Assembly: GCA_015494395.1 (NCBI GenBank) | Contig: WGBG01000180.1 | Span: forward strand, 10,329-74,328 | From: Deltaproteobacteria bacterium | Lineage (GTDB): Bacteria; Desulfobacterota; Dissulfuribacteria; Dissulfuribacterales; QOAL01 | Direction: 5' to 3' | Length of the DNA: 64,000 nt | Shown: positions 5,488 to 30,620 of the stretch, one piece after another | Layout of the letters: the number at the start of each line of letters is the position of its first letter | Numbering within the stretch: the stretch's first letter is position 1 | Position numbers and translations under genes: made by a program | The notes under the pieces: generated by a model | Seen by the model: only the letters and a program-made list of their open reading frames with translations | Told to the model about the DNA's origin: nothing | The model's database searches: none

Positions 5488-5579
5488 GCGTGATTGATAA
5501 GATTTTGATAAAAGGCGCAGCTTTTCATCCGAAAGTCTTATTAATTTGAAACGACTTGTCTTCTGCTTTTCTGAAGGCT

Positions 5580-6530: not shown

Positions 6531-6538
6531 GGCTTAAT

Positions 6539-9922: not shown

Positions 9923-9952
9923 ATTGTATGTGAGGTGAGTACTGTAGGTCAA
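9923..9952 (-). promoter_or_regulatory. candidate sigma-70 promoter for the NusG-like/sugar operon
   Basis: The minus strand reads TTGACC (9952..9947), an 18-nt spacer, then TACAAT (9928..9923). This implies a ~270-nt 5' leader before ATG 9643. Confidence 0.45.
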
Positions 9953-10033
9953 GGGGTTTTTTCGATGCTCGAAATAATTTTTTATCTTATCACATTGTAA
10001 ATCTCTACGCATACAAGGCTTGAAATGCCATAC

Positions 10034-12145: not shown

Positions 12146-13451
12146 GGTCTCTCCTCGTACTGAATATTTTTGAAAGAAGGGTCTTTCGTTGTTGGGATGA
12201 TGGCTCTTCCGCAGGGGGATCAAATTCACCTATGCTGTAAGGCTCAGGCTGAGATTCTTGCGCGATCTGCTGCTGTTCCACTTTACTCAGTAGCATTTTA
12301 AGCTTTTTTTGAAGATTTTTTCGGTCTGCCGCAAGGGAAATTACCTTTTTCTGTTCCCGGTCAAGCAGTTCTTTAAGTATCTTCTTGCTGGCAAGTTCTC
12401 TTATTTCCTCATGACTCTTGTCAATAAGCCTTTCGTTTACCAGCCTGCTTAATACCTGAACAGTTTTTTCAAGTTCTGAAACACGGTTTTGAAGATCAGA
12501 CAGCTGATCTGCCGAAAATCCCTGCATGGCAGGTCCTGCTTGATTTGCAGGTGCCTTTGGCGGTGGCACATCTCCAATATTCTCCCTGTTCGTGGCCGGT
12601 TGTTTTGCAAGAGACTGGGATGATGCGATCTGCCAGAAGTTACCAGCTCCGTCACCTTTTATAGTATCTGTCACAATACTCCTGGTTACTGGTTTAACCT
12701 GGTCGGCAAACGCATTTACCAGACACGCGTCACAAAGCAGGTTGATAAGACGCGGGAAACCAAGGGTCTGTGTGTATATCTCTTCCAGGGCATCCTCGGA
12801 AAAACAGGACCCTACGTCATCACAGCCTGAGACCTTTAGGCGGTGGGCAATGTATTCCTCTGTTTCCTTTTCGGTAAGGGGATTGATATGGTAGTGTACG
12901 GAGATTCGCTGTGCTAGCTGTCTTAAGGAGTGGTGAGTTAGTTTGTATTTTAGTTCCGGCTGTCCAACCAGAAAGATATGAACAAGATAGTCCTTGGTGG
13001 TCTGGAAATTTGAGAGCAGTCGTATCTCCTCAAGAGTTTCCATGGAAAGGTTCTGTGCCTCATCAACTATTAGTACCGCCTTTTTCCCCTTGGTATAGAT
13101 GTCGATGAGGAATGACTTGAGCTTATCAAGTTTCTGAGTATGGGTTTCGTTCTCGTTCCACGGAAGTTCATAATCATCAAGGATTAGGTTAAGAAATTCT
13201 TCTGCTCCAACTGTAGTATTGAATATTGATGCGACAACAGTATCCTCTGCCATGCGTCTGAGCATGGTCTTTACAAGAGTGGTTTTGCCTGTACCTATTT
13301 CACCGGTAATAACGATAAAACCTGCCTGGTGGCTAAGGCCATATTCCAGGTGGACAAGGGCAAGTTTGTGCTGCTGGCTTAAAAAGAGAAATTCCGGATC
13401 AGGAGGGAGTTTGAACGGGCACTCCTTGAGTTTGAAAAAAGATTCATACAT
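12138..13451 (-). CDS. PEP-CTERM/EPS-associated AAA ATPase (ExeA/GspA-like)
   Basis: Walker A (GEIGTGKTT) and Walker B (VLIVDEAQ). ExeA-like N-terminus MYESFFKLKECPFKLPPDPEFLFLS. Confidence 0.8.
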   Translation of the reverse strand: MYESFFKLKECPFKLPPDPEFLFLSQQHKLALVHLEYGLSHQAGFIVITGEIGTGKTTLVKTMLRRMAEDTVVASIFNTTVGAEEFLNLILDDYELPWNENETHTQKLDKLKSFLIDIYTKGKKAVLIVDEAQNLSMETLEEIRLLSNFQTTKDYLVHIFLVGQPELKYKLTHHSLRQLAQRISVHYHINPLTEKETEEYIAHRLKVSGCDDVGSCFSEDALEEIYTQTLGFPRLINLLCDACLVNAFADQVKPVTRSIVTDTIKGDGAGNFWQIASSQSLAKQPATNRENIGDVPPPKAPANQAGPAMQGFSADQLSDLQNRVSELEKTVQVLSRLVNERLIDKSHEEIRELASKKILKELLDREQKKVISLAADRKNLQKKLKMLLSKVEQQQIAQESQPEPYSIGEFDPPAEEPSSQQRKTLLSKIFSTRRDHD

Positions 13452-13603
13452 GGATTAATTATTGTTGGCTATATGAGGATTTTGATGGCAAGGGAGGTAC
13501 AGTAAGGCGGCAGTACCGTGAATTTTCAAAATTTGAGAATTCTAATTGCTGTAACTCCCTTTAATTTTAGCAAGAAAACCATGTTTTGAAACGCTGCTAC
13601 AGG
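13452..13603 (+). repeat. family B element, degenerate long-variant copy (B0), abutting the ATPase start codon
   Basis: Shares ttggctatatg..gg.., cagtaa..cggca, taactccctttaattt and gttttgaaacgct with the other B copies. The termini are degraded. Confidence 0.5.
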
Positions 13604-13612
13604 ATAAAGAAA

Positions 13613-13751
13613 CCTAGATTGAGCGATTGTCGGATATGCAGTAAATACGGCAATCCCGAAGGGTTTCAAAACTGGAAAGCTATAATTGACATAACTCCCT
13701 TTAATTTCATTGAAAAAACATTTTTTCAGATTTTGAAACGCTCAATCTAGG
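13613..13751 (+). mobile_element. family B MITE, short form (B1)
   Basis: Perfect 13-bp terminal inverted repeat CCTAGATTGAGCG / CGCTCAATCTAGG. Flanked by the 5-bp direct repeat AGAAA (13608..13612 and 13752..13756). Confidence 0.8.
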
Positions 13752-13782
13752 AGAAAGTTTTTTGATACGAATGCGTTTCAGG

Positions 13783-14667
13783 TCAATAACCCCTGTAATC
13801 ATAAGAAGGGCAGTATCGTGCCGGTACGCGGTTCAGTGCAATACCAAGAAGGTTTGTATGGCTTATCTCCTCCATTGCCTTGTCCAGTTCTTCCTCCTTG
13901 CTCTTGCAGCTTCTTACCACCATAAGGGCAGTATCTGCATAACGGGCAAGATAAAGACCGTCTGAAAAGAGATTAAGCGGCGGGCTGTCAAATATAACCA
14001 GCCGTTCAGGATAGCGGTTTTTTATGTCAGTGACAAAATCATGCATTGCCGGACTACCAAGGAGGTCCGCCGGGTAGTCTGAAGGGGTTCCGGCAGTAAG
14101 AATGGTGAGCCTTGGTATTCCGGGGTTTATAAGCAGCTCGTTTAGAGGTGTGCCCTTTGTGAGATGTTCAAACAATCCTGCCTCTGCCTCAATTCCCATA
14201 TATTTATGAATGGCAGGCTTGCGCATGTCTGCGTCAACCAGAAGGACTGTCCTGGATGTCTCCCTGGCAATACTTATGGCGAGGTTTATCGCAGTTATGG
14301 TCTTTCCCTCCTTGGGGCCAGGGCTGCATACCATAATGGATCTGGCATCATTTTCCTTCATGGCCGTCTCAATTTTCACCCTGAGCAGGTTGTACTGCTC
14401 TATAATTATTTCCGGACAATCTGTAGTGAGTATCCCGTGCTTTTCAAGCACCGCCTTGTCAGCCGGGGTTACCCTGGTCTGGGTGTACACAGGCTCTATG
14501 TGTCCCGGTCTTGCAGCACATGCTGTTTTGACCTTGGGTGTATCTTCAGCCTGTGTTTTCTGAGGCGCAGGTGTAACTGGTGTGGTTTCTTTAGTAGTTT
14601 CTGAAGCAGGGGAGTCCTCGCCGCGCGCCTGCTGTGCCATCTCCAGTGCCTTTTCTAGCTTGCTCAT
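13783..14667 (-). CDS. EPS/PEP-CTERM locus tyrosine autokinase (BY-kinase, CpsD/EpsG-like)
   Basis: Walker A (SPGPKEGKT), Walker A'-like VLLVDADMRKP, and a Tyr-rich C-terminal tail (YCPSYDYRGY). Confidence 0.8.
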   Translation of the reverse strand: MSKLEKALEMAQQARGEDSPASETTKETTPVTPAPQKTQAEDTPKVKTACAARPGHIEPVYTQTRVTPADKAVLEKHGILTTDCPEIIIEQYNLLRVKIETAMKENDARSIMVCSPGPKEGKTITAINLAISIARETSRTVLLVDADMRKPAIHKYMGIEAEAGLFEHLTKGTPLNELLINPGIPRLTILTAGTPSDYPADLLGSPAMHDFVTDIKNRYPERLVIFDSPPLNLFSDGLYLARYADTALMVVRSCKSKEEELDKAMEEISHTNLLGIALNRVPARYCPSYDYRGY

Positions 14668-14668
14668 T

Positions 14669-16300
14669 TTATTTTTTCCCTTTTACTTCGTCTGCATTCA
14701 ATATGGAAACCAGAGGTGACCGGCCAGTTATGCGTTTAATGTCTGCCGGTGTGCGAATGGTGGTGTCTGCCATTTCAACAATGGAGGCGATACCAATTCC
14801 TATGCCAATACCAAGCACCAAACCAATCAGAATAATCGCAATGCGGTTGGGTTTGACCGGTTTTTCAGGAAGCTGAGGAGGATCAATTACAGTGAATTTT
14901 TCACTTGCCTGGCGTTGTTCAAGTGTCTGCCCCTGCTTGGCCTCCATGAGTTTTGCAGTTATCTGCTTGTATTCTGCCTGCGCAGTCTCATAATCCCTGT
15001 TAAGTTCCCGGTATTCCCGCTCCACCTCAGGCATCTTTTCAAGCCGCTTTATGTATTCTTCCCATTTTTGGGTAAGGTCCTTCTTCCTTGCCTCAAGTCC
15101 TGCCAGTTCGATCTTGGCTGCCTTGATCTGTGTCTGAAGGTTGATGTAAGCCGGATTGTCCGGTTTGCCCACATAGGTTGAGCTTGAGGATGCCGAAGCA
15201 GGAAGAGATGCAATTTTTTTCTTAAGCTCGCTAATCTCCTGCTTGAGTTTTACAATGTCCGGATGTTTGTCTTTCAGGTCCGCGGATTTTTTCTTGAGGT
15301 CTTCCTCTTTGAGTTTCAGAAGGTCAATAAGCTCCTGCCTGTTCTGGGTATTTCCGACTTCCTTCTCAAGATTTGCAATTTCCTGCCTCAATTTGATCAG
15401 GTCAGGATGCCTGGGAGACAGGTTCGCCTCCATGCTTATCTCCTGGCTCCTCAGCATCTTTAGCTTTTGTACCGGATCGGTAATAATCTGGCCGGTAGGA
15501 CCCTGTACTGTGATGTCAGGAGACACTGTGGCAAGCTGTCCCTGAAGATAGACAAGGCGGTTCTTTGCCTGTCTGATCTGTGAGTCAATATCGTCAATCT
15601 GCTGCCGTAGCTGCCGTTCTGTCTGGAGGTTCAGCCCCATGAGTTCAGGCAGCTCAGTAATATGCTTTTGCTTGAATGCAGCAATTTTTGTCTCAAGCTC
15701 CTGTGTGCGTTTGCGGTAAACCTTTGCCTGGTCTTCAAGGAAGCTGGTGGCTGTCTGGGCAAGCTCTTCCCTCATCTTGAGGTTGTGTTCAAGGAAGAGA
15801 GAGGTAAGTCTGTTTGTTACCTGCATGACCTTCCTCGGGTCTGTGCCCTCAAAGGAGACTGTAAAGGCAACATTAACCGTAACTGCCCGACCACTTCTTC
15901 TGTCTGGTACTTCCGCACTGATCATCTCAACAGAGATGTCATCGCGCATCTTGTCAATAATTTCCTCTGTGGTGAGTTTTTCGCGTTCTTCCGGGTAGAG
16001 GTTAAAATCCTTGATAATTTTGAGAAGTACCTGTCTGCTAAGAATCTGTGCGCTGATTGCCTTGATGCGTTCTTCTGCAAAACCGGTAACAGTAGTACGA
16101 ACCAGGTCTTGGGGAACCTGCTGTGATTCAATGAGTATGGTGGATGATGAGCGGTAAACCGGCGGAAGGAGATAGGCTATGGCAACGGCTATGCCAACGC
16201 AGATGAAAAGCGGAAGCAGAATGTGCCATTTTCGCCTGTAAAGAAACTGTTTATAATCATCAAGAGTGGAAAAAGCTTCCTGGTTTTGTTCCTGTTTCAT
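14669..16300 (-). CDS. polysaccharide chain-length determinant protein (Wzz/PCP, PEP-CTERM locus subfamily)
   Basis: N- and C-terminal TM helices flank a long coiled-coil periplasmic region. The gene lies immediately upstream of the BY-kinase. Confidence 0.8.
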   Translation of the reverse strand: MKQEQNQEAFSTLDDYKQFLYRRKWHILLPLFICVGIAVAIAYLLPPVYRSSSTILIESQQVPQDLVRTTVTGFAEERIKAISAQILSRQVLLKIIKDFNLYPEEREKLTTEEIIDKMRDDISVEMISAEVPDRRSGRAVTVNVAFTVSFEGTDPRKVMQVTNRLTSLFLEHNLKMREELAQTATSFLEDQAKVYRKRTQELETKIAAFKQKHITELPELMGLNLQTERQLRQQIDDIDSQIRQAKNRLVYLQGQLATVSPDITVQGPTGQIITDPVQKLKMLRSQEISMEANLSPRHPDLIKLRQEIANLEKEVGNTQNRQELIDLLKLKEEDLKKKSADLKDKHPDIVKLKQEISELKKKIASLPASASSSSTYVGKPDNPAYINLQTQIKAAKIELAGLEARKKDLTQKWEEYIKRLEKMPEVEREYRELNRDYETAQAEYKQITAKLMEAKQGQTLEQRQASEKFTVIDPPQLPEKPVKPNRIAIILIGLVLGIGIGIGIASIVEMADTTIRTPADIKRITGRSPLVSILNADEVKGKK

Positions 16301-16331
16301 GATATGGATCCCTTGAACTATAAATGCTTAT

Positions 16332-17591
16332 TTAAAAGTTTAGGTGAAGATTGAAGTCCTTGATGTCTATCCTGAACATGATCCTGTTACGGTCCCTGTT
16401 GTTGTTATCATGTTCATTGTCATCAATATATTGATAGCTGTACTGGATGCCAACATCAATGTACCGGGTCAGTTGATATGTAAGGGTTGGAAAAACCGAG
16501 TACGTGTAGTAATCCTGGTCGTAGGTGAGGTTCTGGGACTTTATGTGGGATATAGCACCCCTGATTCTGCTTCTTAGCCTTTCTGTAAGGCGCCAGTTAA
16601 AAACAGTTGTCAGGTAGGAGCTTACCACAGGCTCTCCATAACTGCTGGGGGTGACTCTACGTTTGAAGTCTGCGTCTATATCTCCTCTGTCAAACAGCCA
16701 TTTCAGTTCAGCCTCGGCCACCCATCCCCAGTAGTGGTCATTTTGAGTTTCCGTGCGTGTATGAAAAAGGTAGTCTGTTCCTGTCCAGATAATTTCATCC
16801 ACCACAACAATATCTGTTTTTGCATCTGTGTAGTTGACCCCCCCAAGGGCCTTGACATACAGGCGTTCTGTGAAATTCCGTTCAAGGCCGAACATCAGGT
16901 CTGCACTGCGGTAGTCCCCTGTGTCAAAATTCATCTTGCCGATGTCAGGGCGTATAAAGAGCCTGGTCTTCTGGTCTGAAAACAGGTATGAGTAGTTTAT
17001 GTAAAAATAGAGGGTGTCATAATCCACGCTGCCGTGATGGTATTTGCCCCAGTCATAGTCAACCTTGTACCATGGTAATGAGGCAGAAACAGTACTTCTT
17101 TCCGTTAACTTCCACTCCACCTCCGGCGAGGCAGCATATACCAGCCGGTCCTGACGCCGTACAAGCTGTCCGGTTTCTGTGAGGGTCTGATCAAGGGTTG
17201 TGTCATCAGCAAATCTGCCAGTAAAAGAAAATGCCAGCCTTTCTGTCTGCTGTCTTCTGGCTGAAAGGTTAACATCCACGTCAAAGGTGTCCAAATCGTT
17301 TTCTGTGTTGTAATGTTGTCCTTGCCCATTGGTTTTGAGGTCAACCGTGTTTCTGGCATCCTGGTACTTTATATCAATGCCTGGGAGAATTTCATAAATC
17401 CAGTCGTCTATGGGCTTGCGTTTGGTGAAGATGATGTTGTCATCATAGGTCAGGCGGGTGCCAAGGGATGGCCTTATGGTGGTAAGCCCGGCCAGTGATA
17501 TCCGAGATTGGCCTGAAACAATCATAAAGGCAATGAAAAAAATTATTAATGTCTGGCTGGCCAAGTATTCTTTGGTGTAGGAATGGCGCAT
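16332..17591 (-). CDS. PEP-CTERM-associated outer-membrane beta-barrel protein
   Basis: Signal peptide, an alternating aromatic/hydrophilic beta-strand pattern rich in Y/D/T, and a terminal F. It sits between the export gene and the chain-length gene. Confidence 0.6.
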   Translation of the reverse strand: MRHSYTKEYLASQTLIIFFIAFMIVSGQSRISLAGLTTIRPSLGTRLTYDDNIIFTKRKPIDDWIYEILPGIDIKYQDARNTVDLKTNGQGQHYNTENDLDTFDVDVNLSARRQQTERLAFSFTGRFADDTTLDQTLTETGQLVRRQDRLVYAASPEVEWKLTERSTVSASLPWYKVDYDWGKYHHGSVDYDTLYFYINYSYLFSDQKTRLFIRPDIGKMNFDTGDYRSADLMFGLERNFTERLYVKALGGVNYTDAKTDIVVVDEIIWTGTDYLFHTRTETQNDHYWGWVAEAELKWLFDRGDIDADFKRRVTPSSYGEPVVSSYLTTVFNWRLTERLRSRIRGAISHIKSQNLTYDQDYYTYSVFPTLTYQLTRYIDVGIQYSYQYIDDNEHDNNNRDRNRIMFRIDIKDFNLHLNF

Positions 17592-17623
17592 GATTATATC
17601 ATCGTGGTAAAAGTTTAGTAAAA

Positions 17624-17642
17624 TCTAAATTGAGCGATTGTG
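17624..17642 (+). repeat. possible solo left terminus of family B (B2)
   Basis: tctaaattgagcgattgtg resembles the B left end cctagattgagcgattgtc. No right end is present. Confidence 0.3.
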
Positions 17643-17655
17643 AAACATACTCTAA

Positions 17656-18240
17656 TTACGGCACCAGAACAACGTCTCCACTTTGTAGTTCGATATTCTG
17701 TTCCAGATTTTTTCCACTTGCTATGTCATTGTAATCAAAATCTATTTTTGTTTCACCAGATGCAGTGTGACGAATTATTACAATGTCACTGAGGTCAGCA
17801 AATGGATTGGTGCCACCTGCCATACTCAGTGCCTGAAGTACGGTAACCCTTGGAAGCACTACGAACATCCCTGGTTTGTTGACCTTGCCTATTACATATA
17901 TCTTGTATGACTCAATTTTGACAGGGGTAACGGTAACAATTGGATTTGACATGTAGTCAGACAGGCGTTTAGTGATTTCCTGTCTTATTTGGGAAACTGA
18001 CTGGCCAGCTGCCTGTATTTCACCTATTAGAGGGAAACTTATGAAACCATCAGGCTGAACAATTATCTGTCTTGTGAGATCCTGATCCTTCCAAACAGAA
18101 ATTTCAATTACATCCCCCGGTCCTAGCTGAAAATCTTCTGTTTTAGAAGCAACTGCAGATGACGATGTTGATAAGACCATGACAGTTGTAAGAAGAAGGA
18201 TAAGTTTCCCAAGCAAGTACGATTGGCTGTTAGTGTTCAT
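17656..18240 (-). CDS. polysaccharide export protein (Wza/EpsE-like, PEP-CTERM-associated)
   Basis: Signal peptide, a poly_export-type block (YQLGPGDVIEISVW), and an SLBB-like C-terminus. A GGAGGG RBS precedes the ATG. Confidence 0.8.
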   Translation of the reverse strand: MNTNSQSYLLGKLILLLTTVMVLSTSSSAVASKTEDFQLGPGDVIEISVWKDQDLTRQIIVQPDGFISFPLIGEIQAAGQSVSQIRQEITKRLSDYMSNPIVTVTPVKIESYKIYVIGKVNKPGMFVVLPRVTVLQALSMAGGTNPFADLSDIVIIRHTASGETKIDFDYNDIASGKNLEQNIELQSGDVVLVP

Positions 18241-18811: not shown

Positions 18812-19390
18812 TTATGCTTTGCTTTTTTTAAATAATGCCAATCCTGCCAGACCAACGCCAAGCAGATAAATCGCTCCCGGAATTGGAACAGGCTGAGCGT
18901 CAACCTGAATCAGAAGGGCATCGAAACCGTACCAGGTTATGGCATGCTGTCCATATGCAGAGTCTAGTCCCAACGCATCGGCTACTGCTGTATTAAAACC
19001 TGGCAGCCAGCAACCACTTACTTTCATCGCAACCTGGAAGCGGTTGGACCCCTCAAGGATAACCCTTGGAGTATTGGGCATCCCTGCACGTCTTATGCCA
19101 AAGTCGTCTCCTACAGGTATTAACTCTATGCTATCCCATACTATGCCAAAGCCTGGATTGCCTTGAAGGATGAAATGGGGGTCGCTGTCCAGCAGGCTGG
19201 CCTGATCATCAAAGATTGCAATTTTGCCGTATATTTCATAGCCAGAATAGTTGATGTCAATGTTACCAGACTCTGTAGGCTCCCAAATGGTCCCTGGGCC
19301 CAATCCACCGCATGACGCAGATGCGCTGACAATCATTCCTGGAATGAGGAACAGCAGAGCTGACAGTACGGCTATACCTTTAATTTTCAT
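18812..19390 (-). CDS. secreted protein with PEP-CTERM-like (VPIPGA variant) C-terminal sorting signal
   Basis: Signal peptide. C-terminus is PVPIPGAIYLLGVGLAGLALFKKSKA (motif, TM helix, basic tail). AAGGAA RBS. Confidence 0.7.
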   Translation of the reverse strand: MKIKGIAVLSALLFLIPGMIVSASASCGGLGPGTIWEPTESGNIDINYSGYEIYGKIAIFDDQASLLDSDPHFILQGNPGFGIVWDSIELIPVGDDFGIRRAGMPNTPRVILEGSNRFQVAMKVSGCWLPGFNTAVADALGLDSAYGQHAITWYGFDALLIQVDAQPVPIPGAIYLLGVGLAGLALFKKSKA

Positions 19391-19422: not shown

Positions 19423-20010
19423 TTACTTGGTGGCTCTCTTCCGCGTTATGCCAAACAGCCCCAGAAGACCTGTTCCAAGCAGCCATACTGCGCCTGGGAT
19501 AGGAACGGCATTGCATGAATTTTTCAGGTGCCCTTCCGCGGCCAGATCACGGCCATGCAGCTCGAACACTTCGCTATTCTTTTCTCCCTGTACCATAAAA
19601 CTGTCATATGAGTCATACCATTTAACTTCTGCAGGACCATCAAACTGAAACGACGCTAGGGTTGTATCATCAGTAATGATGGCTGATCCCCATAATGCAG
19701 CCCCAGTGAATGCAACGAAAGGAGTACCTTCAGGTGTAACATCTTCATACATTGGCATTGGGAAAAGAGGGTCAGGAGGAGTTTCAGTCACATTGACTAT
19801 ATTCGCTCCTTCGTATGTAAACGCCAGCGTGTATGCGCCCAGATTCAGTGATTCTCCTGGATCTACACCCATAACAAAATCTACTGAATACTCATCAGCG
19901 CCGGGCATTATGTCAAACCATGAGCTTGCCAGTGCGCTGTTTACAATCATAAAAAGTAATGCTGTTAGAAGTAATGTTCCACTAAAAAATTTGTTAAATA
20001 AGCTTTTCAT
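19423..20010 (-). CDS. secreted protein with PEP-CTERM-like (VPIPGA variant) C-terminal sorting signal
   Basis: Signal peptide (..NSALA). C-terminus is AVPIPGAVWLLGTGLLGLFGITRKRATK. AAGGAGA RBS. Confidence 0.7.
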   Translation of the reverse strand: MKSLFNKFFSGTLLLTALLFMIVNSALASSWFDIMPGADEYSVDFVMGVDPGESLNLGAYTLAFTYEGANIVNVTETPPDPLFPMPMYEDVTPEGTPFVAFTGAALWGSAIITDDTTLASFQFDGPAEVKWYDSYDSFMVQGEKNSEVFELHGRDLAAEGHLKNSCNAVPIPGAVWLLGTGLLGLFGITRKRATK

Positions 20011-20037: not shown

Positions 20038-20805
20038 TTAGTTACAGCTTTGCAACCATTCGGTTTTAAGAATCAGGAAGTCACTCAGGTTGACTGTACC
20101 GTCACCATTTATGTCTCCTTCTTCATAAGTAACGCCTGATTGTAGCCAGTGAGTTTTGATTATCAGGAAGTCACTGAGGTTGACAGTACCGTCACCATTG
20201 ATATCAGCTTGCAGACTGCAAATCACTGCATAGCTTACACCGGAAAAAGTAACTGTAGAGTCCAGATCCTCTCCGGTTGTAGAGGCGAAGTTGACATAGT
20301 TTGGGTATGTCGTACGATCCTTGCCCAAAGATAAAGTTATGCCGAACAGGCTCTCTGGATCACTAACAGGCATGGTATTTGTAGCCCTTGTAAAAGTGAT
20401 TGTGCCAAGGAGAACCTTGTCGCCACTGACACCGGCTGTAGGATCACTGGTGTCAAGCTTTCCCCCGAGGATTACAACAGAATCGGTACTGATTTCAGGG
20501 TCTTTGTATGGATAATTGGTGCTGGAATCACCGAAATACCATACACTCTCATTTTTATCTGCAGATACTATAGATAACTCATCCGGGTTGAATGTTACCT
20601 TGATACATTGACTTACCACTGGCGTATCAAGTTGTGCGTAAATGTTCAGTATAAGTTGATCAGCATCATACGTACCTTCTGCAGAAACCAAGGTGGCGGC
20701 CGATGCAGTAGTTACGGTCCACGCCATCATTAAAGCGGGAATGATTATCGCTTTAAAAAATGACATTATGATTTTTTTTGTAACTTTTAATCCATTCACA
20801 TTCAT
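20038..20805 (-). CDS. secreted protein with two C-terminal dockerin-type repeats
   Basis: Signal peptide. Tandem DINGDGTVNLSDFLI(I/L)KT(H/E)WLQS calcium-binding dockerin repeats at the C-terminus. The N-terminal domain is possibly cohesin-like. Confidence 0.7.
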   Translation of the reverse strand: MNVNGLKVTKKIIMSFFKAIIIPALMMAWTVTTASAATLVSAEGTYDADQLILNIYAQLDTPVVSQCIKVTFNPDELSIVSADKNESVWYFGDSSTNYPYKDPEISTDSVVILGGKLDTSDPTAGVSGDKVLLGTITFTRATNTMPVSDPESLFGITLSLGKDRTTYPNYVNFASTTGEDLDSTVTFSGVSYAVICSLQADINGDGTVNLSDFLIIKTHWLQSGVTYEEGDINGDGTVNLSDFLILKTEWLQSCN

Positions 20806-20919
20806 ATGCCTCCTTATATTAAATTTGATAATTCCCTTTGTCCGTTACTCATGTACCTGAGTATAAACTGGAAACCTCCTTTCCTTAATCTTTAAATATT
20901 ACATTTTTTATCATATACA

Positions 20920-20934
20920 GCAAATAGTGTGCCG
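20920..20934 (-). promoter_or_regulatory. sigma-54 (-24/-12) promoter
   Basis: The minus strand reads tCGGCAC-ACTAT-TTGCTg, against the consensus TGGCAC-N5-TTGCW. It lies ~115 nt upstream of ATG 20805. Confidence 0.65.
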
Positions 20935-21128
20935 ATGAAATATCATAAAAAAACCTTAGTGAGACGTTTATAATATTGTTTTTTTGAAATATCTTTAGTT
21001 TTTATGAAAAAAAATACCCAGTATTTTTTTTCCATTTGCCATATCTTGGCCAGCGTCAATGCTACTTCTTTCTGTTTAGTTGTTGTTATTCCATGCAATA
21101 GGTCATTGTTTATTGAAGAGTACCCAAA

Positions 21129-22526
21129 TTAATTTCCAAATCGGCTGGCTAATAACTGAATATCCTGGTCATTAATTACCCAGTTATGGTCCAAATCGCA
21201 AGACGGATCATACCCATGGGCAGGCTGGGCATAAAACACCATGTTGGCCAGGTCGCTGCCATCAAAGTCCTGATCGTAGTCATGATCACCATTTGTCTCA
21301 ATGGTCCGAACAGCCCTGACAATCAGGTACGTCGTATCGAGTTTGTCAAAACTGCAAATTTGTCCCTTGTAAAGGTCAAGATAGAATGCTGTGGAATAAT
21401 CAATATTGTTATTTGTGTCTAATGAATATATCGTTGAAGATGTCCAAAACAATATAAAGTTGAAGGGGTCGGCCGGGTCATACCAGTAGGGTATGGAAAA
21501 TAGATCAGGGATTGCTGGATTAGTGGTGCTGTAATCAGCCAATGACTGCATCTCATTACGATTTGGTAGCCGCCAGTCAGTGTAGCCAGCTAAGTTTGAA
21601 GTCTCACAATACTCTAATGCTTGTTCCCAGGAATATGTTCCCCACTCCTCGGGTATGTCTTCACACTCACCTGTACTATTATTGTAGGTTTGGCCCATGT
21701 AGCACTTCTGCCACATCAGACTGGTTGAAACATCGGTAATTGTACCATCTCCATTATCAATAAACCTGCTCTGGGGTACAGGTTGTCCGCCGCGAACCGC
21801 CCTTACCCAGTGCCTGTCGGTCTTGAAATAGTTGTCATCAACACACCTGTTGCTGAAACATACATACCATGCCCAGGTAGGCTGATCTGCCGCAGTAGTG
21901 GCAGACCAATAGTTGTCTGATATAGTATTGGGAAAGAAATCTGCGTCCACCGCAGGGGCCTCATCTGATGCGCCAAGGTTTACAAGTGTGGAGAGTTCTT
22001 TGACTGTCGGCATGCGCCAGTCTGAAAAACCGCCGAAATTATCTTGGTTTAGCTTTGCAATAAAGGCTTCAGTGTCATCTTCTGCTGCAGGATCGGCACA
22101 CGCCCCTTGATCTCCGCCATTGGTATCTGGATTTGTATCACACCAGGTAAAGTTGTTGTCCTTGTCATGAATGGAACCGTCATCAGTTTTGACTTCCCAT
22201 ATGAGTCCGGTGACATTGTCCCGGGTCATTACCCAGCCATCTGCCAAAGTTGCATCGTCGGGAAGTTCAACTCCATTATAACCAAGTTTTGTGTAGGAAC
22301 GTAAACCATTATACTGGGCATCCTGTCCATGAAAGGCCTCCCCAGATGCAGGACACTCAATTTCACTTGAGTTGTTGTAACACTTGTTTTGGCCTGTATC
22401 TGGCCAGTAATTGAAGGCTGCCCCCGCGTTGTTTCCGGCAAATGCTGATGCAAAAAGGCCGGTCATGCAAATTGTACATAATAAGGTACATAATCGTAAG
22501 ATTAGCGATATGGTTATATGTCTCAT
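21129..22526 (-). CDS. secreted DUF1566 (Lcl C-terminal domain) repeat protein with dockerin-like C-terminus
   Basis: Two DUF1566-type blocks (DWRMPTVKELSTL, DWRLPNRNEMQSL). The C-terminus DLDHNWVINDQDIQLLASRFGN is dockerin-like. ATG 22526 is preferred because GGGAGGA lies 6 nt upstream; the ORF track starts at TTG 22532. Confidence 0.7.
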   Translation of the reverse strand: MRHITISLILRLCTLLCTICMTGLFASAFAGNNAGAAFNYWPDTGQNKCYNNSSEIECPASGEAFHGQDAQYNGLRSYTKLGYNGVELPDDATLADGWVMTRDNVTGLIWEVKTDDGSIHDKDNNFTWCDTNPDTNGGDQGACADPAAEDDTEAFIAKLNQDNFGGFSDWRMPTVKELSTLVNLGASDEAPAVDADFFPNTISDNYWSATTAADQPTWAWYVCFSNRCVDDNYFKTDRHWVRAVRGGQPVPQSRFIDNGDGTITDVSTSLMWQKCYMGQTYNNSTGECEDIPEEWGTYSWEQALEYCETSNLAGYTDWRLPNRNEMQSLADYSTTNPAIPDLFSIPYWYDPADPFNFILFWTSSTIYSLDTNNNIDYSTAFYLDLYKGQICSFDKLDTTYLIVRAVRTIETNGDHDYDQDFDGSDLANMVFYAQPAHGYDPSCDLDHNWVINDQDIQLLASRFGN

Positions 22527-22602
22527 CTTCAATCCTCCCTGAGCGCTTTTTAGCCGGATGGTTGGGCAATAACAGAAAAATAATACAACGGCAATACATC
22601 AA

Positions 22603-22617
22603 GCAATTAGTGTGCCG
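22603..22617 (-). promoter_or_regulatory. sigma-54 (-24/-12) promoter
   Basis: The minus strand reads CGGCAC-ACTAA-TTGCTt, differing at one position within the 15-bp core from the promoter at 20920..20934 (a second difference lies just downstream of TTGCT). It lies ~77 nt upstream of ATG 22526. Confidence 0.65.
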
Positions 22618-22762
22618 GATGCTAAAATGATAAAAATCACATTAAAAAAAGAAATTGAAGGGTGAGTTCCGTTAAAAAATGTTGAAGTGAAAAAAAAGTC
22701 TCATTGTTTGTGCAATTAATTTCCTATAGGATAATATGGCATACGGGGCATATTGCACAGTG

Positions 22763-25057
22763 TCATATTACGCATAGTTTTGCATATTTCAAGTGGAGGG
22801 TTTTAATCCCACCAACTTCAAACAGCACTTTAACCTTTTCTGTTGAGATTTTTTGTATAATTTTGCCACGTCCAAAGGTTGAATGTCTTACCCGGGTGCC
22901 AGGTGCAAGTGGTATATCCCCCTGTTGGTCCGGTTCAAGCCCGCCACTGCCCTGAGAGGAATTTTTAGAGGTGACTGCAGGAGTTTTAGTACATGCTTCA
23001 AAACCCTGTTCCGCGTGAGTATTCAAGGGATGGGATGCAGGGTCAATTTGATGCAGGAGGCTGGACGGGATTTCCTTCAGAAACCGGCATGGTTCAGCAG
23101 GCGCAAGGCCAGCACCTGCCATGTTGATAAACATGGGATAGCAGAGGCACAGATAGTCCTTGGCCCGGGTAGCTGCTACATAGAACAGCCTGCGTTCTTC
23201 TTCCAGTTCATCTATGCTGTTTTGTGATGCTGGGGATGGAAATCTGCCCTCTGCCATGGAAAGTATATAAACCGCCTTCCACTCAAGGCCCTTTGCCGAG
23301 TGAATGGTGGATAATACCACACGTTTCCTGTTCGAAGAGTCATCCGGGCCTTTTTCCGGGGGATCAAGAGCCAGCTCATCAAGCAACTCCTGAATGGTGC
23401 CATACTTGGATGACATTGCAATAAGCTGGCTTATGTCTTGCTGCCTTTTGGGAAAGTCGTCAATATAGTTTGCCTGAAGAAATGGCCTGTACCATTTTTC
23501 AGCCATGTCCAGGATTTTGCGGAATTTTCCATGGCTGGCAAGATCGTTAATTTCAAGGAGCAGTTTTCCAAGTTCTTGTAACTTTTCAGCCCACCGGGCC
23601 CGGCTTGGATACTTTGCCAGCAGTCTGTGGGGATCACTGCTTTTTACAACTTCCGCAAAGATTTTTCCTGCTGTCTTTATGCCAAGGTGGGGAATAAGGA
23701 GCAGAGCCCGTTCAAGGCTCAACCTGTCAAGGGGATTCTGGGAAATGCGCAGTACGGAAATGAAATCCTTTATGTGGGCTGATTCTATCAGTCTCATTCC
23801 GCCCCGTTTTTCAAAGGGTATTCCTCGGGCGTTAAGTTCTGTTTCAAGCGCAAAGGAGTGAAACCCTGCCCTGAACAGCGCTGCAATCTCGTGTGGCTCT
23901 GTGCCATTATCAATCAGGGAGGCAATGTGGTCTGCCACAAATGCCGCCTGTTCATTCTCGTCCCTTGCCTGGTACAGTGCAGGAGGAACGCCACCTTTCC
24001 TGTGGGCAGTGAGGCGCTTGGAGAATTTCTGGCTGGCATTTGCTATTATGGCGTTGGTGCAGTCAAGGTTGGGTTGGGTTGAACGGTAGTTTTTTTCAAG
24101 TTTTATTATGGTGGTGCCCGGGAACAGGTGAGGAAAATCAAGTATATTGTTGATTGTGGCTCCCCTGAATGAATATATTGACTGTGCATCATCCCCAACC
24201 ACCATGACATTTTCATGTCCGGTGGCCATAAGCCTGACTATTTCAGCCTGGGCAGGATTGGTGTCCTGGTACTCGTCCACCATGATGAACTGGTATCGTG
24301 CTCCCATTTCCTGCCGTACCCTGGGGTTGTCAAGCAGAATGTCACGCCACCTCAACAGCAGATCGTCATAGTCCATTAGACCATGCTTTTTTTTGTAGCG
24401 GGTGTACGCATGGTGCAGCATGGTAATGGACTTCATGTCCCTGGACAGGTGCTGGTAATAGCGTTGTATTATATCCTCAATGGGCTTTGATGCATTTTCA
24501 GCCTTGCTGATAATGGCTGCAAGTGTAGCCTTTCTCGGGAACCGCTTGCCTGGACCTGTAAATTTCATCTCCCTTGCAAGCAGGTGTAGCAGATCCCTGG
24601 TATCCCCTGCATCCATGATTGTAAAGTTTGGAGAATACCCTGCCAGGTGGGCATGGGTTCTGAGCATGCGGTGGGCAAAGGAATGAAATGTCCCGCCGGC
24701 TACCTGGCTGCATGCATGGCCGGTGATCTCTGCTGCACGCTGCAGCATGCCAGAGGCAGCCTTGCGGGTGAAGGTTAACAGAAGGATGGATTCAGGAGGG
24801 ATACCCTCCATGATAAGTCTGGCAACACGATAGACTAGGGTGCGGGTCTTGCCACTTCCTGCACCTGCAATTACCAGCAAAGGGCCTTCAAGGTGTGTAA
24901 CAGCCCGGTACTGTTCAGGGTTTAGATGTGACTTGAAATCTTGCTCGGAAATGAGGGGCATGGGCCTGGCAGATAACCTTCCTGTTGGCGTTGCGGATAT
25001 TGAATCGCTCTGTTTTGTCAAGTGCATTATTTTGATGAAGTTGCTGCACTTTGACAC
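22763..25057 (-). CDS. UvrD/PcrA/Rep-family ATP-dependent DNA helicase
   Basis: Walker A (AGAGSGKT), DEYQDT, and the other helicase superfamily 1 motifs. The start is uncertain (GTG 25057, ATG 25027 or ATG 24961). Confidence 0.9.
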   Translation of the reverse strand: MSKCSNFIKIMHLTKQSDSISATPTGRLSARPMPLISEQDFKSHLNPEQYRAVTHLEGPLLVIAGAGSGKTRTLVYRVARLIMEGIPPESILLLTFTRKAASGMLQRAAEITGHACSQVAGGTFHSFAHRMLRTHAHLAGYSPNFTIMDAGDTRDLLHLLAREMKFTGPGKRFPRKATLAAIISKAENASKPIEDIIQRYYQHLSRDMKSITMLHHAYTRYKKKHGLMDYDDLLLRWRDILLDNPRVRQEMGARYQFIMVDEYQDTNPAQAEIVRLMATGHENVMVVGDDAQSIYSFRGATINNILDFPHLFPGTTIIKLEKNYRSTQPNLDCTNAIIANASQKFSKRLTAHRKGGVPPALYQARDENEQAAFVADHIASLIDNGTEPHEIAALFRAGFHSFALETELNARGIPFEKRGGMRLIESAHIKDFISVLRISQNPLDRLSLERALLLIPHLGIKTAGKIFAEVVKSSDPHRLLAKYPSRARWAEKLQELGKLLLEINDLASHGKFRKILDMAEKWYRPFLQANYIDDFPKRQQDISQLIAMSSKYGTIQELLDELALDPPEKGPDDSSNRKRVVLSTIHSAKGLEWKAVYILSMAEGRFPSPASQNSIDELEEERRLFYVAATRAKDYLCLCYPMFINMAGAGLAPAEPCRFLKEIPSSLLHQIDPASHPLNTHAEQGFEACTKTPAVTSKNSSQGSGGLEPDQQGDIPLAPGTRVRHSTFGRGKIIQKISTEKVKVLFEVGGIKTLHLKYAKLCVI

Positions 25058-28315: not shown

Positions 28316-29035
28316 TTATGGTTCCTCCCCGTCCAGACGAAACCTGTAGCCTACTCCTGAATGGGTGATGATCAGACGGGGGCTTGATGGGTTGTCTTCT
28401 ATCTTCTGGCGAAGCCTTCTTATGTGTACGTCAATTGCCCGGCTCCACGGGTAAACCTCCTTGTCTTTCCAGAGTCTGTTACACAACTCTTCACGTTTAA
28501 CTACCTTGTTACAGTTTTCTACAAGGGTCAGCAGCAGCTCGAACTCCTTACGGGTGAGATTCACATGCTCTCCCCTGGCAGTCACTGTCCTCTGTTCAGG
28601 ATAGATGGTTATGTCACCTGCCTTTATCACCTGTTCTGTACGGGTTGTCTTGTCCCTGCGCCTGATACACGCCTTTATGCGTGCTGCAAGTTCCAGGAAT
28701 TCAAAGGGCTTGGTCATGTAGTCGTCAGCCCCCAGGTCAAGCCCCCGTATCTTGTCAGCAAGGCTCTCCCGTGCACTGAGGATTATAATCGGGATGTCAG
28801 ACAGCTTCCTCAAATGCTGGCATATTATCAGGCCATCAATGTCTGGCAGGGTGAGATCAAGAATGACAAGGTCCGGCTTAAAACTATCAAAAGCCTCCAT
28901 AGCCTCCTTGCCGGTTGACACACCCTTTGCCTCATAACCGTCCAGTGCAAGCTGATCCACAAGGACCTTTTGAATGTCCTGATCGTCCTCAACCACAAGT
29001 ATTTTCATTCCTTCCCTAGGTTCTCCCTCAATCAT
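28316..29035 (-). CDS. OmpR-family response regulator
   Basis: Receiver domain (KILVVEDD..DLVILDLTLPD) plus a winged-helix output domain (GVGYRF). Start is ATG 29035 (GGGGGA 8 nt upstream) or ATG 29008. The 29134 extension is rejected. Confidence 0.9.
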   Translation of the reverse strand: MIEGEPREGMKILVVEDDQDIQKVLVDQLALDGYEAKGVSTGKEAMEAFDSFKPDLVILDLTLPDIDGLIICQHLRKLSDIPIIILSARESLADKIRGLDLGADDYMTKPFEFLELAARIKACIRRRDKTTRTEQVIKAGDITIYPEQRTVTARGEHVNLTRKEFELLLTLVENCNKVVKREELCNRLWKDKEVYPWSRAIDVHIRRLRQKIEDNPSSPRLIITHSGVGYRFRLDGEEP

Positions 29036-30620
29036 TGAGATTGTCCCCCTGTTTGAAAACTGGTACAGTGAAATAAAAAATCGCCCCTTTGTCACCAACG
29101 ATTTTAAGGCCTGCTTCGCCTCTGTGAAGTTCAACTATTCCCTTGACTATTGAGAGGCCAAGCCCTAGTCCTTCCGGCCCCTTATACCGTCTGGACTGAT
29201 AAAATTTGTCAAAAATCGCCTCCCGCTCTGCCTCTGGAACTCCTTGTCCCTGGTCTGTTACGGATATGAGCCAGAAGGATGCATCTTCTGGTGTGGAAGA
29301 ATTGTCACCATGAATGTCTGTACAGGGCTCAAGCCGCACATTTATTGAAGAGTGCTCAGGAGAAAATTTTATTGCATTTGAAAGCAGGTTTGACATTACC
29401 TGTTCCATTCTTGCAGGGTCAATCATAGCCGGACAGTGATACTCAGGAACCTGGTAGTTTATTTCTATTTTTTTCTCCCAGGCCAGGGGCATGGCCATGA
29501 GGATGGTGTTTTCAATAAGTTCAGCTAGATCTATGGGCCTTAAGTCAAATTCCATTGAACCGCTGTCAAGCCTTGTACAGTCAAGCACGTCCTGAACCAT
29601 ACCTGCAAGTTTGGTGCAGTTTCGTTCAAGTATTTCTAGGTAAGGGTTGTCTTTGCAGAATTCAGTGTTTTTAAGGAGACTCAGGGCCCCTTTCATGGCT
29701 GTTATGGGGGTCTTGAGGTCATGGGTTATGTTGGTAAAAAAATCAGCCTTGTACTGCTCGGTTCGTTTAAGCTCATCGTACGCCTGTTTCATGCTTGAAA
29801 CAGCCTTTTCCACTTCTTCCTGTAAAACTGCCTGCTGTCTTGCAAGTTCCCGCACCATGGAGTTAAAGTTTTTTCCCACGGCCTTCCATTCTACTGAGCC
29901 CTGAAGATCAAGCCGCACATCAAGGTCCCCCTGCTGAACTCTGCTGGCTGCGGCATCAAGCTTCCCAAGTGGTTTGAGCACGAACCGGTTTAAGAGTATC
30001 CAGAGGATAACCATAAGTAGCCCGAATGCGCCTGTCAGGTAGAGGGCGGCATAGAGGCTTTTTTGTTTAAGGGTACTGAAAAAACGCTCTGCGTCATGAA
30101 GGCTTACAGTTATGCAGCCTATGATTCCTGTTTTTTTCTTTTCAGCGTGGCAGGATGTGCAACCTGCATCAAATACAAGCGGGCCGGCATATCTGAATAC
30201 AGGCCTGCCATCTGCTTCGGTAACATCCCAGAGTTCCCGGACACCCTTGTTTTTCATAAGGCTGATGGCCTTTTGTTCAAATGGATCAGGTGCATGATCC
30301 GGGTCAACATTGCCATCCAGTGCCAGTTTTATGGAAAATGGTGCGTGTTTTTTCTGGCCCAGGTCTGCAAGTGCCTTGGTAAAGCCTGAGGGGGTCTTGC
30401 GCTGGAATTGATTGTCCTTACGAACATACACCCCCTTCCACTGGGAGATTAACTGCCGGGTCAGCACGATGTAGTGATAAATCCCCCTGGCCTCAAGCTT
30501 CATCTGTTCCATCACCGCCCTCTTTTCATGATGGTTTTGCCATGCCATGAATATTCCTGCAAAGATCAGGTTTAGTAAGAGCAGGATTAAGAAAAGTTGT
30601 CTGTTAAGGCTTGAGGGCAT
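29028..30620 (-). CDS. sensor histidine kinase with periplasmic CXXCH-containing (DUF3365/Tll0287-like) domain and HAMP
   Basis: Two TM helices bracket a ~160-aa periplasmic domain containing CTSCH (30147..30161). These are followed by a HAMP domain, the H-box FFTNITHDLKTP, and the HATPase N/G boxes. Confidence 0.85.
   Translation of the reverse strand: MPSSLNRQLFLILLLLNLIFAGIFMAWQNHHEKRAVMEQMKLEARGIYHYIVLTRQLISQWKGVYVRKDNQFQRKTPSGFTKALADLGQKKHAPFSIKLALDGNVDPDHAPDPFEQKAISLMKNKGVRELWDVTEADGRPVFRYAGPLVFDAGCTSCHAEKKKTGIIGCITVSLHDAERFFSTLKQKSLYAALYLTGAFGLLMVILWILLNRFVLKPLGKLDAAASRVQQGDLDVRLDLQGSVEWKAVGKNFNSMVRELARQQAVLQEEVEKAVSSMKQAYDELKRTEQYKADFFTNITHDLKTPITAMKGALSLLKNTEFCKDNPYLEILERNCTKLAGMVQDVLDCTRLDSGSMEFDLRPIDLAELIENTILMAMPLAWEKKIEINYQVPEYHCPAMIDPARMEQVMSNLLSNAIKFSPEHSSINVRLEPCTDIHGDNSSTPEDASFWLISVTDQGQGVPEAEREAIFDKFYQSRRYKGPEGLGLGLSIVKGIVELHRGEAGLKIVGDKGAIFYFTVPVFKQGDNLND

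Follow-up and report, generated by a model that had tools for sequence, protein, structure and literature searches.

The secreted-protein genes in the 64-kb window (i.e., the whole stretch of DNA that was analyzed) are very probably served by two genuine sigma-54 promoters, P1 and P2, with nearly identical −24/−12 cores on the minus strand. We consider it probable that both are functional bipartite, enhancer-dependent sigma-54 (RpoN) promoters with an activator placed at ~100 bp upstream, and we infer from the sequence their sigma-54 dependence, their start sites, the extent of the operon, and the role of an upstream T-run as activator site. Under this model, sigma-54 holoenzyme would form a closed complex on the P1 and P2 cores that is opened by an ATP-dependent enhancer-binding protein (EBP), encoded elsewhere in the genome and acting ~100 bp upstream, with a T8-C(C/A) element 70 to 72 nt before the core as its binding site or as an element that positions it. 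P2 would then give rise to a transcript of a DUF1566/dockerin-like gene starting at ~22591, and P1 would drive a cohesin-dockerin gene and two VPIP-CTERM cargo genes from ~20908 to a terminator at 18794–18768. In this way, a group of secreted surface or matrix proteins would be tightly co-regulated in an on/off manner.

The cores of P1 (CGGCACACTATTTGCT; 20934–20919, minus strand, with GG at 20933–20932 and GC at 20921–20920) and P2 (CGGCACACTAATTGCT; 22617–22602, minus strand, with GG at 22616–22615 and GC at 22604–22603) differ at a single base, T at 20924 versus A at 22607. A preliminary description of this DNA, whose ranges (20920–20934 and 22603–22617) comprise the first 15 bases of each 16-mer, had already reported this one-base difference as well as two minus-strand fits to TGGCAC-N5-TTGCW with correct GG/GC spacing, and both statements hold: GG and GC lie 10 nt apart in P1 and P2, as in that pattern. 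Each core fits 10 of the 12 scored positions of YTGGCACG-N4-TTGCW, deviating from it by C for T at −26 (the first base of the core) and A for G at −20. The count of GGCAC-N5-TTGC is by itself not significant, given that 2 occurrences in 64 kb compare to 0.99 expected. The 16-mer common to P1 and P2 was found twice in the window when up to 2 mismatches were allowed, versus 0.08 expected, and none of 100 shuffles gave two copies. A consensus-score scan of the window returned 6 sites of at least 10/12 versus ~3 expected; among these 6 best sites only P1 and P2 are intergenic (with an intergenic share of the window of ~11%), and each of the two has the orientation of the gene that follows it.

From the predicted start of P1 at ~20908, the leader would extend over ~104 nt to the ATG at 20805, and from that of P2 at ~22591 over ~66 nt to the ATG at 22526; counted from the end of the core, the ATG lies 113 nt (P1) or 75 nt (P2) downstream. 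No Rfam family was detected in a scan of the whole window, which therefore contains no known leader RNA. Outside three small islands, the intergenic regions of P1 and P2 show 29.5% identity versus 27.7% by chance, which rules out a recent duplication of the promoter segment and indicates that the resemblance of the two promoters is selective.

Syntenic orthologous loci from two relatives, L055 (77% protein identity) and L056 (59%), keep both cores in intergenic DNA with only 38% and 28% invariant columns. At P2, GGCACA.TAATTGCTTG is invariant in both of them, and the P1 orthologs read CGGCATAATACTTGCT and GGGCACATTTTTTGCT, with GG, GC, and TTGCT kept and a variable spacer. The P2 core is also identical in the 96% relative L010, but L010 and L005 (96% amino acid identity) were discarded for footprinting because their intergenic DNA is 98–99% identical and thus too close. 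Across 15 independent loci with cohesin-dockerin homologs, 10.5 kb of sense-strand upstream DNA contained 6 sites of at least 10/12 versus 0.27 expected, a ~20-fold enrichment (P = 4e-7); a strong site within 700 nt is present at just 5 of these 15 distant loci. Cores that are kept while their flanks diverge and that are enriched upstream of distant homologs thus support the initial assignment of sigma-54 promoters to the secreted-protein genes. They also weigh against the reading that P1 and P2 are non-functional look-alikes, with sigma-70-type promoters driving the genes instead. In favor of such a reading, the count of the generic pattern does not exceed chance in the window, the AT-rich leaders are rich in −10-like hexamers, and a weak sigma-70-like site lies at the end of the helicase gene (TTGAAA-16-TAATAT, 22792–22765). 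Yet scanning for the sigma-70 consensus gave no match inside either the P1 or the P2 intergenic region, leaders included, and the two cores are both intergenic, co-oriented, near-identical, and matching in architecture, so that we find the look-alike reading extremely improbable.

The gene behind P2 (21129–22526, minus strand) is, as originally proposed, the DUF1566/Lcl_C gene. Its product, a secreted protein 465 aa in length, has a signal peptide, two DUF1566/Lcl_C domains (Pfam Lcl_C match at 3e-52), and a degenerate dockerin-like C-terminus, and homologs of this protein carry Dockerin_1. The transcription unit behind P1 is most likely an operon of three genes that extends to the terminator at 18794–18768, in agreement with the previously described order of dockerin gene, two cargo genes, and terminator. 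Its first gene (20038–20805, minus strand) encodes a secreted protein of 255 aa with an N-terminal cohesin and a C-terminal type I dockerin. Dockerin_1 is matched at 3e-12 and the Cohesin match is weak, and a Foldseek search with the AlphaFold model (pLDDT 80) gave cohesin modules as matches, with E = 2e-8 and TM values of at most 0.70. Exact-sequence look-up of this protein and of the XrtA-associated ATPase (see below) returned no database record.

The second and third genes of the P1 operon follow after gaps of 27 nt and 32 nt and encode secreted proteins of 195 aa (19423–20010, minus strand; tail AVPIPGAVWLLGTGLLGLFGITRKR) and 192 aa (18812–19390, minus strand; tail PVPIPGAIYLLGVGLAGLALFKKSK). 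Both tails consist of VPIPGA, ~15 hydrophobic residues, and then RKR or KKSK, i.e., a VPIP variant of the PEP-CTERM signal, which is also found on the gene after every dockerin homolog. Referring to these as PEP-CTERM genes was therefore right about the PEP-CTERM-like C-termini but not about family membership by score, as the tails remain below the curated thresholds of the PEP-CTERM models (TIGR02595/PF07589) and reach 16–17 bits versus 25.35 for VPLPA-CTERM. The implied control of PEP-CTERM genes also needs to be amended, since the genes directly behind P1 and P2 (cohesin-dockerin and DUF1566) have no PEP-CTERM tail. Homology among the two cargo proteins and the cohesin protein was considered and rejected, with only the signal peptide and the sorting tail in common between them. 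The operon is closed by an intrinsic terminator (18794–18758, minus strand) with an 11-bp stem including 5 GC pairs, followed by the T-tract TTTTTTTAT (−17.2 kcal/mol, z = −3.75). After the DUF1566 gene, no convincing terminator was found, so that some read-through into the next unit is possible.

Conserved sites upstream of both promoters, which the preliminary description had suggested looking for, are present in the form of the T8-C(C/A) element. At P2, this element (TGAGACTTTTTTTTCA, T8-CA; 22688–22703, minus strand) ends 70–71 nt before the core, at ~−97 to −112 from the predicted start. At P1, it is part of a palindrome with perfect 12-nt arms, GAAAAAAAATAC-TGG-GTATTTTTTTTC (21006–21032), of which the 3′ half is the T8-CA element TGGGTATTTTTTTTCA (21020–21005), also ending 70–71 nt before the core, and both elements have an equal offset from their cores in an ungapped comparison. 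Taking the window, L055, and L056 together, each of the six orthologous promoters has T8-C(C/A) ending 70–72 nt before its core. A search of 662 kb for the full architecture of T-run, 70-nt gap, and core retrieved only the orthologous promoters, two tandem sites in locus L012, and one match in a coding region, with gaps of 69–71 nt at the promoter matches. Homopolymer tracts are frequent in AT-rich intergenic DNA, and the interval for a cross-family positional test of the T-run was picked after the data had been seen. T8-C(C/A) is the best candidate for the site of an EBP or for an element that positions it.

Instead of being a regulatory DNA site, the A8/T8 palindrome at P1 might terminate transcription of the DUF1566 gene. 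In line with this, it is located past the DUF1566 stop codon, no other terminator follows this gene, and as RNA it would fold into a hairpin of −9.3 kcal/mol (z = −4.4). This hairpin has no trailing U-tract, however, and its stem is almost purely A-U with the U-run inside the stem. Moreover, GGAAAAAAA and ATTTTTTTT of the palindrome are invariant in L055 and L056, and the inner arms (TAC, G.A) are conserved there in sequence but have lost their complementarity, which argues for a DNA-level site instead of an RNA hairpin. With T8-C(C/A) also placed at equal distance from P2, where neither the A-run half of the palindrome nor a hairpin is present, we think it quite unlikely that the palindrome serves as a terminator.

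The T-tract could also be an intrinsic bend instead of a protein site. Tracts of A/T introduce bends into DNA, and at sigma-54 promoters the enhancer often has to be brought to the core by such a bend. The T8 tract would then be merely architectural (an A-tract bend or an IHF/HU-type site) and the activator site would be located elsewhere, e.g., at GCAATATGCCCC upstream of P2. Located ~130–140 nt upstream of the P2 core and directly after the uvrD-like stop codon, this invariant 12-mer (22745–22756, minus strand) occurs only once in the window, and when the window, L055, and L056 are aligned at P2, no other fully conserved run is as long. No conserved hairpin was found at this position, and the 12-mer could be a second upstream site or a 3′-end element of the helicase gene. 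A rigid spacing is what would be expected of a bend, and P2 has this additional element farther upstream while lacking the A-run half of the palindrome. Against a purely architectural role, GCAATATGCCCC has no counterpart at P1, where no upstream element other than the palindrome is conserved (in L056, only ~45 nt lie between it and the preceding stop codon). In addition, the non-T positions GGA and TAC are conserved, too, and the location at ~−97 to −124 is typical of an enhancer and farther upstream than a typical bend. All in all, we view the architectural role as a minor possibility and continue to favor T8-C(C/A) as an activator site or as an element positioning the activator.

The preliminary description had argued that a shared promoter implies a common regulator. 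This does not follow from the core by itself, which is recognized by sigma-54 but not by the EBP; what points to a common activator is instead an element that had gone unnoticed, T8-C(C/A), ending 70–72 nt upstream of both cores. No such regulator is encoded in the window, just as had been noted: neither a Sigma54_activat domain in window ORFs of 150 aa or more nor a GAFTGA motif in any of the six frames of the window was found. GAFTGA/Walker-A scans for EBPs in the window and the other loci were negative except for one unrelated metagenome locus, and neither rpoN nor an EBP gene turned up in the window, the adjoining 10 kb beyond its start, or the fetched homologous loci. Members of this phylum usually have sigma-54 together with many EBPs. 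D. vulgaris has 37 EBPs (PMC4641369).

As candidate regulator, PrsR had been put forward, and one may thus read P1 and P2 as part of a canonical PrsK/PrsR regulon, activated by a PrsR encoded elsewhere as in Proteobacteria and Desulfovibrio. The genomic neighborhood fits this idea. The secreted-protein genes lie beside an XrtA-type exopolysaccharide (EPS) export operon (with chain-length determinant, tyrosine autokinase, ATPase, and export protein), though they appear to be transcribed separately, and this locus includes a PrsT-like TPR protein (10034–12229; 276.9 bits versus a cut-off of 312.2). The phylogenetic profile of PrsT matches those of PrsK, PrsR, and the cis site (PMC1569441). The layout of an upstream motif, a spacer of ~60–70 nt, and a sigma-54 motif matches as well, and the upstream element ends in TTTTCA compared to TTTACA in Haft motif 1. 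However, PrsK and PrsR are found neither in the window nor adjoining the PrsT-like gene. No exosortase gene was detected in the window or in a 10-kb extension, which we obtained by locating the glycosyltransferase at the window start by exact sequence and which contains no EBP gene either.

The cis evidence does not support PrsR. With a PrsR-box matrix derived from 28 published sites of DVUA0057, the ortholog of PrsR (training minimum 12.6 bits), no match of at least 5 bits was obtained within 300 nt upstream of P1 or P2, and the T8CA 17-mers score −12 to −13 bits on it. Nothing was found with this matrix upstream of the EPS leader or of homolog promoters, the best match at ten of which reached 7.3 bits. 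TGT-N11-ACA is absent from all leaders of the locus (P1, P2, EPS, and UpxY) and from the homolog promoters. We therefore deem activation by PrsR unlikely.

Sigma-54 control of exosortase cargo genes is already established (Haft 2006, Rajeev 2011, Xia 2023), and the promoters described here are a lineage-specific variant of this known scheme, so that they represent a modest conceptual advance. In Proteobacteria, the PEP-CTERM cis region described by Haft 2006 consists of motif 1 (the predicted PrsR site), a spacer of 62.8 ± 10.6 nt, and motif 2 (the sigma-54 −24/−12 element), followed by a leader of 71 ± 38.5 nt (PMC1569441). Our locus resembles this arrangement in having a sigma-54 core ahead of secreted-protein genes of the exosortase system, with an EPS locus alongside that includes a PrsT-like TPR gene, in its large intergenic regions, and in a second conserved motif ~60–70 nt upstream (here 70–72 nt), though its sequence is not that of motif 1. 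The 75- and 113-nt leaders are within the published range, and this fit of leader lengths and upstream spacing supports our explanation (PMC1569441). Unlike in that work, T8-C(C/A), or GGAAAAAAA...TTTTTTTTCC, takes the place of a 17-mer ending in TTTACA as upstream motif, the first gene behind P1 and P2 lacks a PEP-CTERM tail, the sorting signal is of the VPIP instead of the PEP type, and the cargo genes are second and third in an operon, whereas Haft 2006 described mostly single-gene units.

In D. vulgaris, the EBP DVUA0057 binds upstream of PEP-CTERM genes by DAP-chip (Rajeev 2011, PMC3333781) at a consensus, TGTCGGA-N4-YTTACA, that is the same as Haft motif 1 ending in TTTACA (Kazakov 2015, PMC4641369). 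That regulon likewise belongs to a sulfate-reducer lineage with sigma-54 promoters ahead of PEP-CTERM and EPS genes, but TGTCGGA-N4-YTTACA is absent here. In addition, the PrsT/EPS export operon is itself a target in D. vulgaris, whereas sigma-54 core and PrsR box are both missing from the EPS leader of our locus. The pepA gene of Aquincola tertiaricarbonis is RpoN1-dependent with a mapped −24/−12 start (Xia 2023, PMC9850573). Like the genes studied here, it encodes a secreted matrix protein near prsT and an EPS cluster, and the EPS biosynthesis genes of Aquincola are not RpoN-dependent. Unlike here, it is a single PEP-CTERM gene of a betaproteobacterium with a predicted canonical enhancer upstream.

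Sigma-54 promoters are silent without an activator, and P1 and P2 would hence indicate that a set of secreted surface or matrix proteins is switched on and off, with a probable influence on how an uncultured bacterium of the sulfate-reducer type aggregates or forms biofilms. It is tempting to speculate that in this Desulfobacterales-type lineage a non-PrsR sigma-54 activator recognizes the A-run/T-run palindrome (GGAAAAAAA-N-TTTTTTTTCC) 70 nt from the core and switches on a conserved cassette composed of the cohesin-dockerin protein and VPIP-CTERM cargo together with the DUF1566/dockerin protein, a proposal that we put forward only tentatively. If true, this would be a second, previously undescribed enhancer/activator pair for exosortase-system matrix proteins. 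Our case extends the link of sigma-54 and exosortase cargo to a lineage without canonical PrsR box, and the precisely defined, conserved bipartite motif of T8-C(C/A), a 70-nt gap, and GGCAYA-N4-TTGCT could serve genome-wide regulon prediction and, combined with phylogenetic profiling, identification of the cognate activator.

A metagenome scan with TTTTTCA-N60-80-GGCACACTANTTGCT yielded 30 loci and is uninformative on the regulon, because none of them comes from the source lineage and several lie upstream of pilin or response-regulator genes. Promoters of other bacterial EBPs (glnAp2/NtrC or pilA/PilR) share the GG-N10-GC core and an inverted-repeat enhancer at ~−100, for which we have a candidate here, but this candidate differs from them in being an unusual homopolymeric A/T palindrome. 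The core sequence GGCACACTANTTGCT is also found upstream of type IV pilin genes in metagenomes.

P1 and P2 are real and conserved sigma-54 motifs, very probably promoters of an already known regulatory type, and a lineage-specific upstream element stands where the canonical box for the classical activator PrsR would be. Both cores were read from the window sequence on the minus strand (P1, CGGCACACTATTTGCT, 20934-20919; P2, CGGCACACTAATTGCT, 22617-22602), which confirms the two near-identical sigma-54-type motifs of the preliminary description: they are one base apart and have a GG-to-GC spacing of 10 nt, agreeing with the consensus TGGCACG-N4-TTGCW. They are the sole matches to GGCAC-N5-TTGC in the window, where around one is expected by chance, and their common 16-mer (up to 2 mismatches) was found 2 times versus 0.08 expected. 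A consensus-score scan of the window gave 6 sites of at least 10/12 compared with about 3 expected; among these, only P1 and P2 are intergenic (intergenic DNA makes up about 11% of the window), and both are oriented toward the next gene.

P1 is followed by the gene of a 255-aa cohesin-dockerin protein (20038-20805, minus; model pLDDT 80, Foldseek matches to cohesin modules with E = 2e-8), by two genes whose products have about 190 aa each (19423-20010 and 18812-19390, minus), and by a strong terminator (18794-18768, minus). P2 precedes the gene of a DUF1566/Lcl_C protein (21129-22526, minus), downstream of that of a UvrD-like helicase (22763-25057, minus). This gene content is as originally described, with one qualification regarding the two “PEP-CTERM” genes: their products, which have only a signal peptide and a VPIPGA/hydrophobic/basic tail in common, do carry a PEP-CTERM-like sorting signal, but it reads VPIP instead of PEP and scores below the family thresholds, likewise missing the VPLPA-CTERM cut-off. 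The tail of window genes and homologues (L001-L008 and L056) has the form AVPIP[GS]A, hydrophobic helix, RR(K/R) and may represent an undescribed sorting-signal subclass for this lineage’s exosortase. Since the gene after each cohesin-dockerin homologue encodes a tail of this kind, the cassette of cohesin-dockerin and VPIP-CTERM cargo is conserved, and across Desulfobacterales MAGs (L001, L003, L004, L006, L008, and L056) a small cargo gene always comes next. The cohesin and dockerin modules, a degenerate dockerin-like repeat at the C-terminus of the DUF1566 protein (21129-21300, minus), and this constant downstream gene together suggest a non-cellulosomal cohesin-dockerin assembly anchored via the exosortase pathway.

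The cohesin-dockerin homologues come from Desulfobacterales/Thermodesulfobacteriota MAGs, and 10.5 kb of sense-strand DNA upstream of them at 15 independent loci contained 6 sigma-54 sites of at least 10/12 versus 0.27 expected from the remaining sequence of these loci (Poisson P = 4e-7). Both cores and both T-run elements (see below) are intact in the closest relative, a “Deltaproteobacteria bacterium” MAG (L010) that at 96% protein identity is too close for an informative comparison. The most informative loci were found via DUF1566 homologues at 77% (L055) and 59% protein identity (L056/L057, NCBI JBPLOL010000052), and L056 is fully syntenic, with a two-component system, glmS, epimerase, uvrD, DUF1566, cohesin-dockerin, two VPIP-CTERM genes, and the EPS export operon. 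Over three lineages, invariant positions make up just 38% of the intergenic columns at P2 and 28% at P1; the P2 core is kept as GGCACA.TAATTGCTTG and the P1 core as GGCA[CT]A-N4-TTGCT with a variable spacer, the pattern that would be expected of a sigma-54 site. Tandem sigma-54-like cores precede the cohesin-dockerin gene in L001 (9821 and 9892, 71 nt apart) and L012 (5381 and 5565, 184 nt apart), in the latter each with its own T-run at 69-71 nt.

Outside the 16-mer, the P1 and P2 leaders are 29.5% identical (ungapped, core-anchored) versus 27.7% expected from composition, so that only discrete elements are common to them and a recent duplication is ruled out. Two more islands occur at identical offsets, a small T-rich stretch immediately preceding the -24 element and TG(G/A)G..TTTTTTTTCA, whose end lies 70-71 nt before both cores. 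Across the three lineages, this T8-C(C/A) element is kept in 6/6 promoters with its end 70-72 nt from the core. When 662 kb (window plus loci) were searched for T6+C[CAT], a 62-80 nt gap, and a sigma-54-like core, the matches comprised only these promoters, the two tandem sites of L012, and one site in a coding region, with gaps of 69-71 nt at promoters. In 5/10 independent homologue promoters, a looser T5+C[AT] element has its end 70-100 nt upstream, compared with 3% of 30-nt intergenic intervals containing one, although this interval was picked post hoc and the P value is hence optimistic. At P1, a perfect inverted repeat of 12 nt (GAAAAAAAATAC-TGG-GTATTTTTTTTC) has the T-run element as its 3' half; orthologues keep the A-run, TAC, G.A, and T-run while inner-arm complementarity is lost, and the RNA hairpin would be weak with no trailing U-tract, which is why we read this palindrome as a putative DNA-level site.

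Sigma-54 control of exosortase cargo genes is an established principle. Upstream of proteobacterial PEP-CTERM genes, including those of Geobacter and Desulfovibrio, Haft et al. 2006 (PMC1569441) described a 17-nt motif 1 ending in TTTACA (the predicted PrsR site), a spacer of 62.8 +/- 10.6 nt, and the sigma-54 motif 2, with the start codon 71 +/- 38.5 nt further on; the architecture here is of the same type, with leaders of 75 and 113 nt and upstream-element spacing within the published ranges. In D. vulgaris, DAP-chip detected binding of DVUA0057, a PrsR orthologue, upstream of the PEP-CTERM genes (Rajeev et al. 2011, PMC3333781); the sites predicted for it have the consensus TGTCGGA-N4-YTTACA (Kazakov et al. 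2015, PMC4641369). The pepA gene of Aquincola tertiaricarbonis depends on RpoN1 and has a mapped -24/-12 start (Xia et al. 2023, PMC9850573). A matrix built from 28 published DVUA0057 sites (training minimum 12.6 bits) found nothing of at least 5 bits upstream of P1 or P2; at ten homologue promoters, too, it gave no convincing match. Because TGT-N11-ACA is also missing from the P1, P2, EPS, and UpxY leaders, the canonical box is absent, and the cis evidence lends no support to PrsR, the activator originally favored; a diverged orthologue with altered specificity could still act here. Deducing a shared activator from a shared core is unsound in itself, and it is the common upstream element that suggests one activator for P1 and P2.

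In the proposed mechanism, sigma-54 holoenzyme would sit on both cores, and an enhancer-binding protein encoded outside the window would act through the conserved element, which lies at about -97 to -124 when counted from the predicted starts (near 20908 for P1 and 22591 for P2). The P1 transcript would begin with the cohesin-dockerin gene, continue across gaps of 27 and 32 nt into the two cargo genes, and stop at the terminator; that of P2 would cover the DUF1566/dockerin-like gene, with possible read-through since no good terminator follows. As previously noted, the window encodes no such activator: no ORF contains a sigma-54 activator domain or RpoN, and GAFTGA is absent from all frames.

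The XrtA-type exopolysaccharide locus (100-18240, minus) encodes an export protein (TIGR03027), outer-membrane protein (TIGR03016), chain-length determinant (TIGR03007), tyrosine autokinase (TIGR03018), ATPase (TIGR03015), a PrsT-like TPR protein scoring just below cut-off, a UpxY/LoaP-type NusG paralogue (UpxY-type antiterminator, 9050-9643), sugar-modification enzymes, and a small MarR-EPS-like ORF. It extends at least 10 kb past the window start (carbamoyltransferase, XrtA-type amidotransferase-like AsnB, radical SAM enzymes, and glycosyltransferases; L022-L024), and no exosortase gene was seen in the locus including these 10 kb. Its operon leader has neither sigma-54 core nor T-run, paralleling Aquincola, where EPS genes are not RpoN-dependent (Xia et al., PMC9850573).

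Several smaller features accompany the promoters. A 13-nt inverted repeat (TTTTTTATGATAT ... ATATGATAAAAAA, 20904-20916 and 20940-20952, 12/13 complementary) exactly flanks the P1 core and could be a repressor operator occluding the promoter or an AT-rich coincidence; P2 has the left arm alone. The P1 leader contains a 5-bp hairpin (GGAAAGGAGGTTTCC, 20870-20884, minus) whose loop displays GGAGG, resembling a Shine-Dalgarno sequence, about 65 nt before the actual start, and GAGGAAAGGAGG recurs in the 59% orthologue L056. Directly past the uvrD-like stop codon, the 12-mer GCAATATGCCCC (22745-22756, minus), unique in the window and with no conserved hairpin found, is kept unchanged in the lineages whose proteins are 77% and 59% identical, despite diverged flanking DNA. 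An OmpR-type response regulator and Tll0287-like/HAMP histidine kinase (28316-30620, minus), syntenic in L056 (1860-4171), may regulate neighboring envelope genes, direct sigma-54 activation being impossible for this pair. In many Proteobacteria rpoN comes after the LptB-type ATPase gene; here, the LptB-like gene (31100-31822, plus) is followed by a convergent ABC exporter, not rpoN. A metagenome pattern scan gave matches solely from unrelated organisms, and the core GGCACACTA(T/A)TTGCT precedes type IV pilin genes, a classical sigma-54 target, on three such contigs (L028, L030, and L043).
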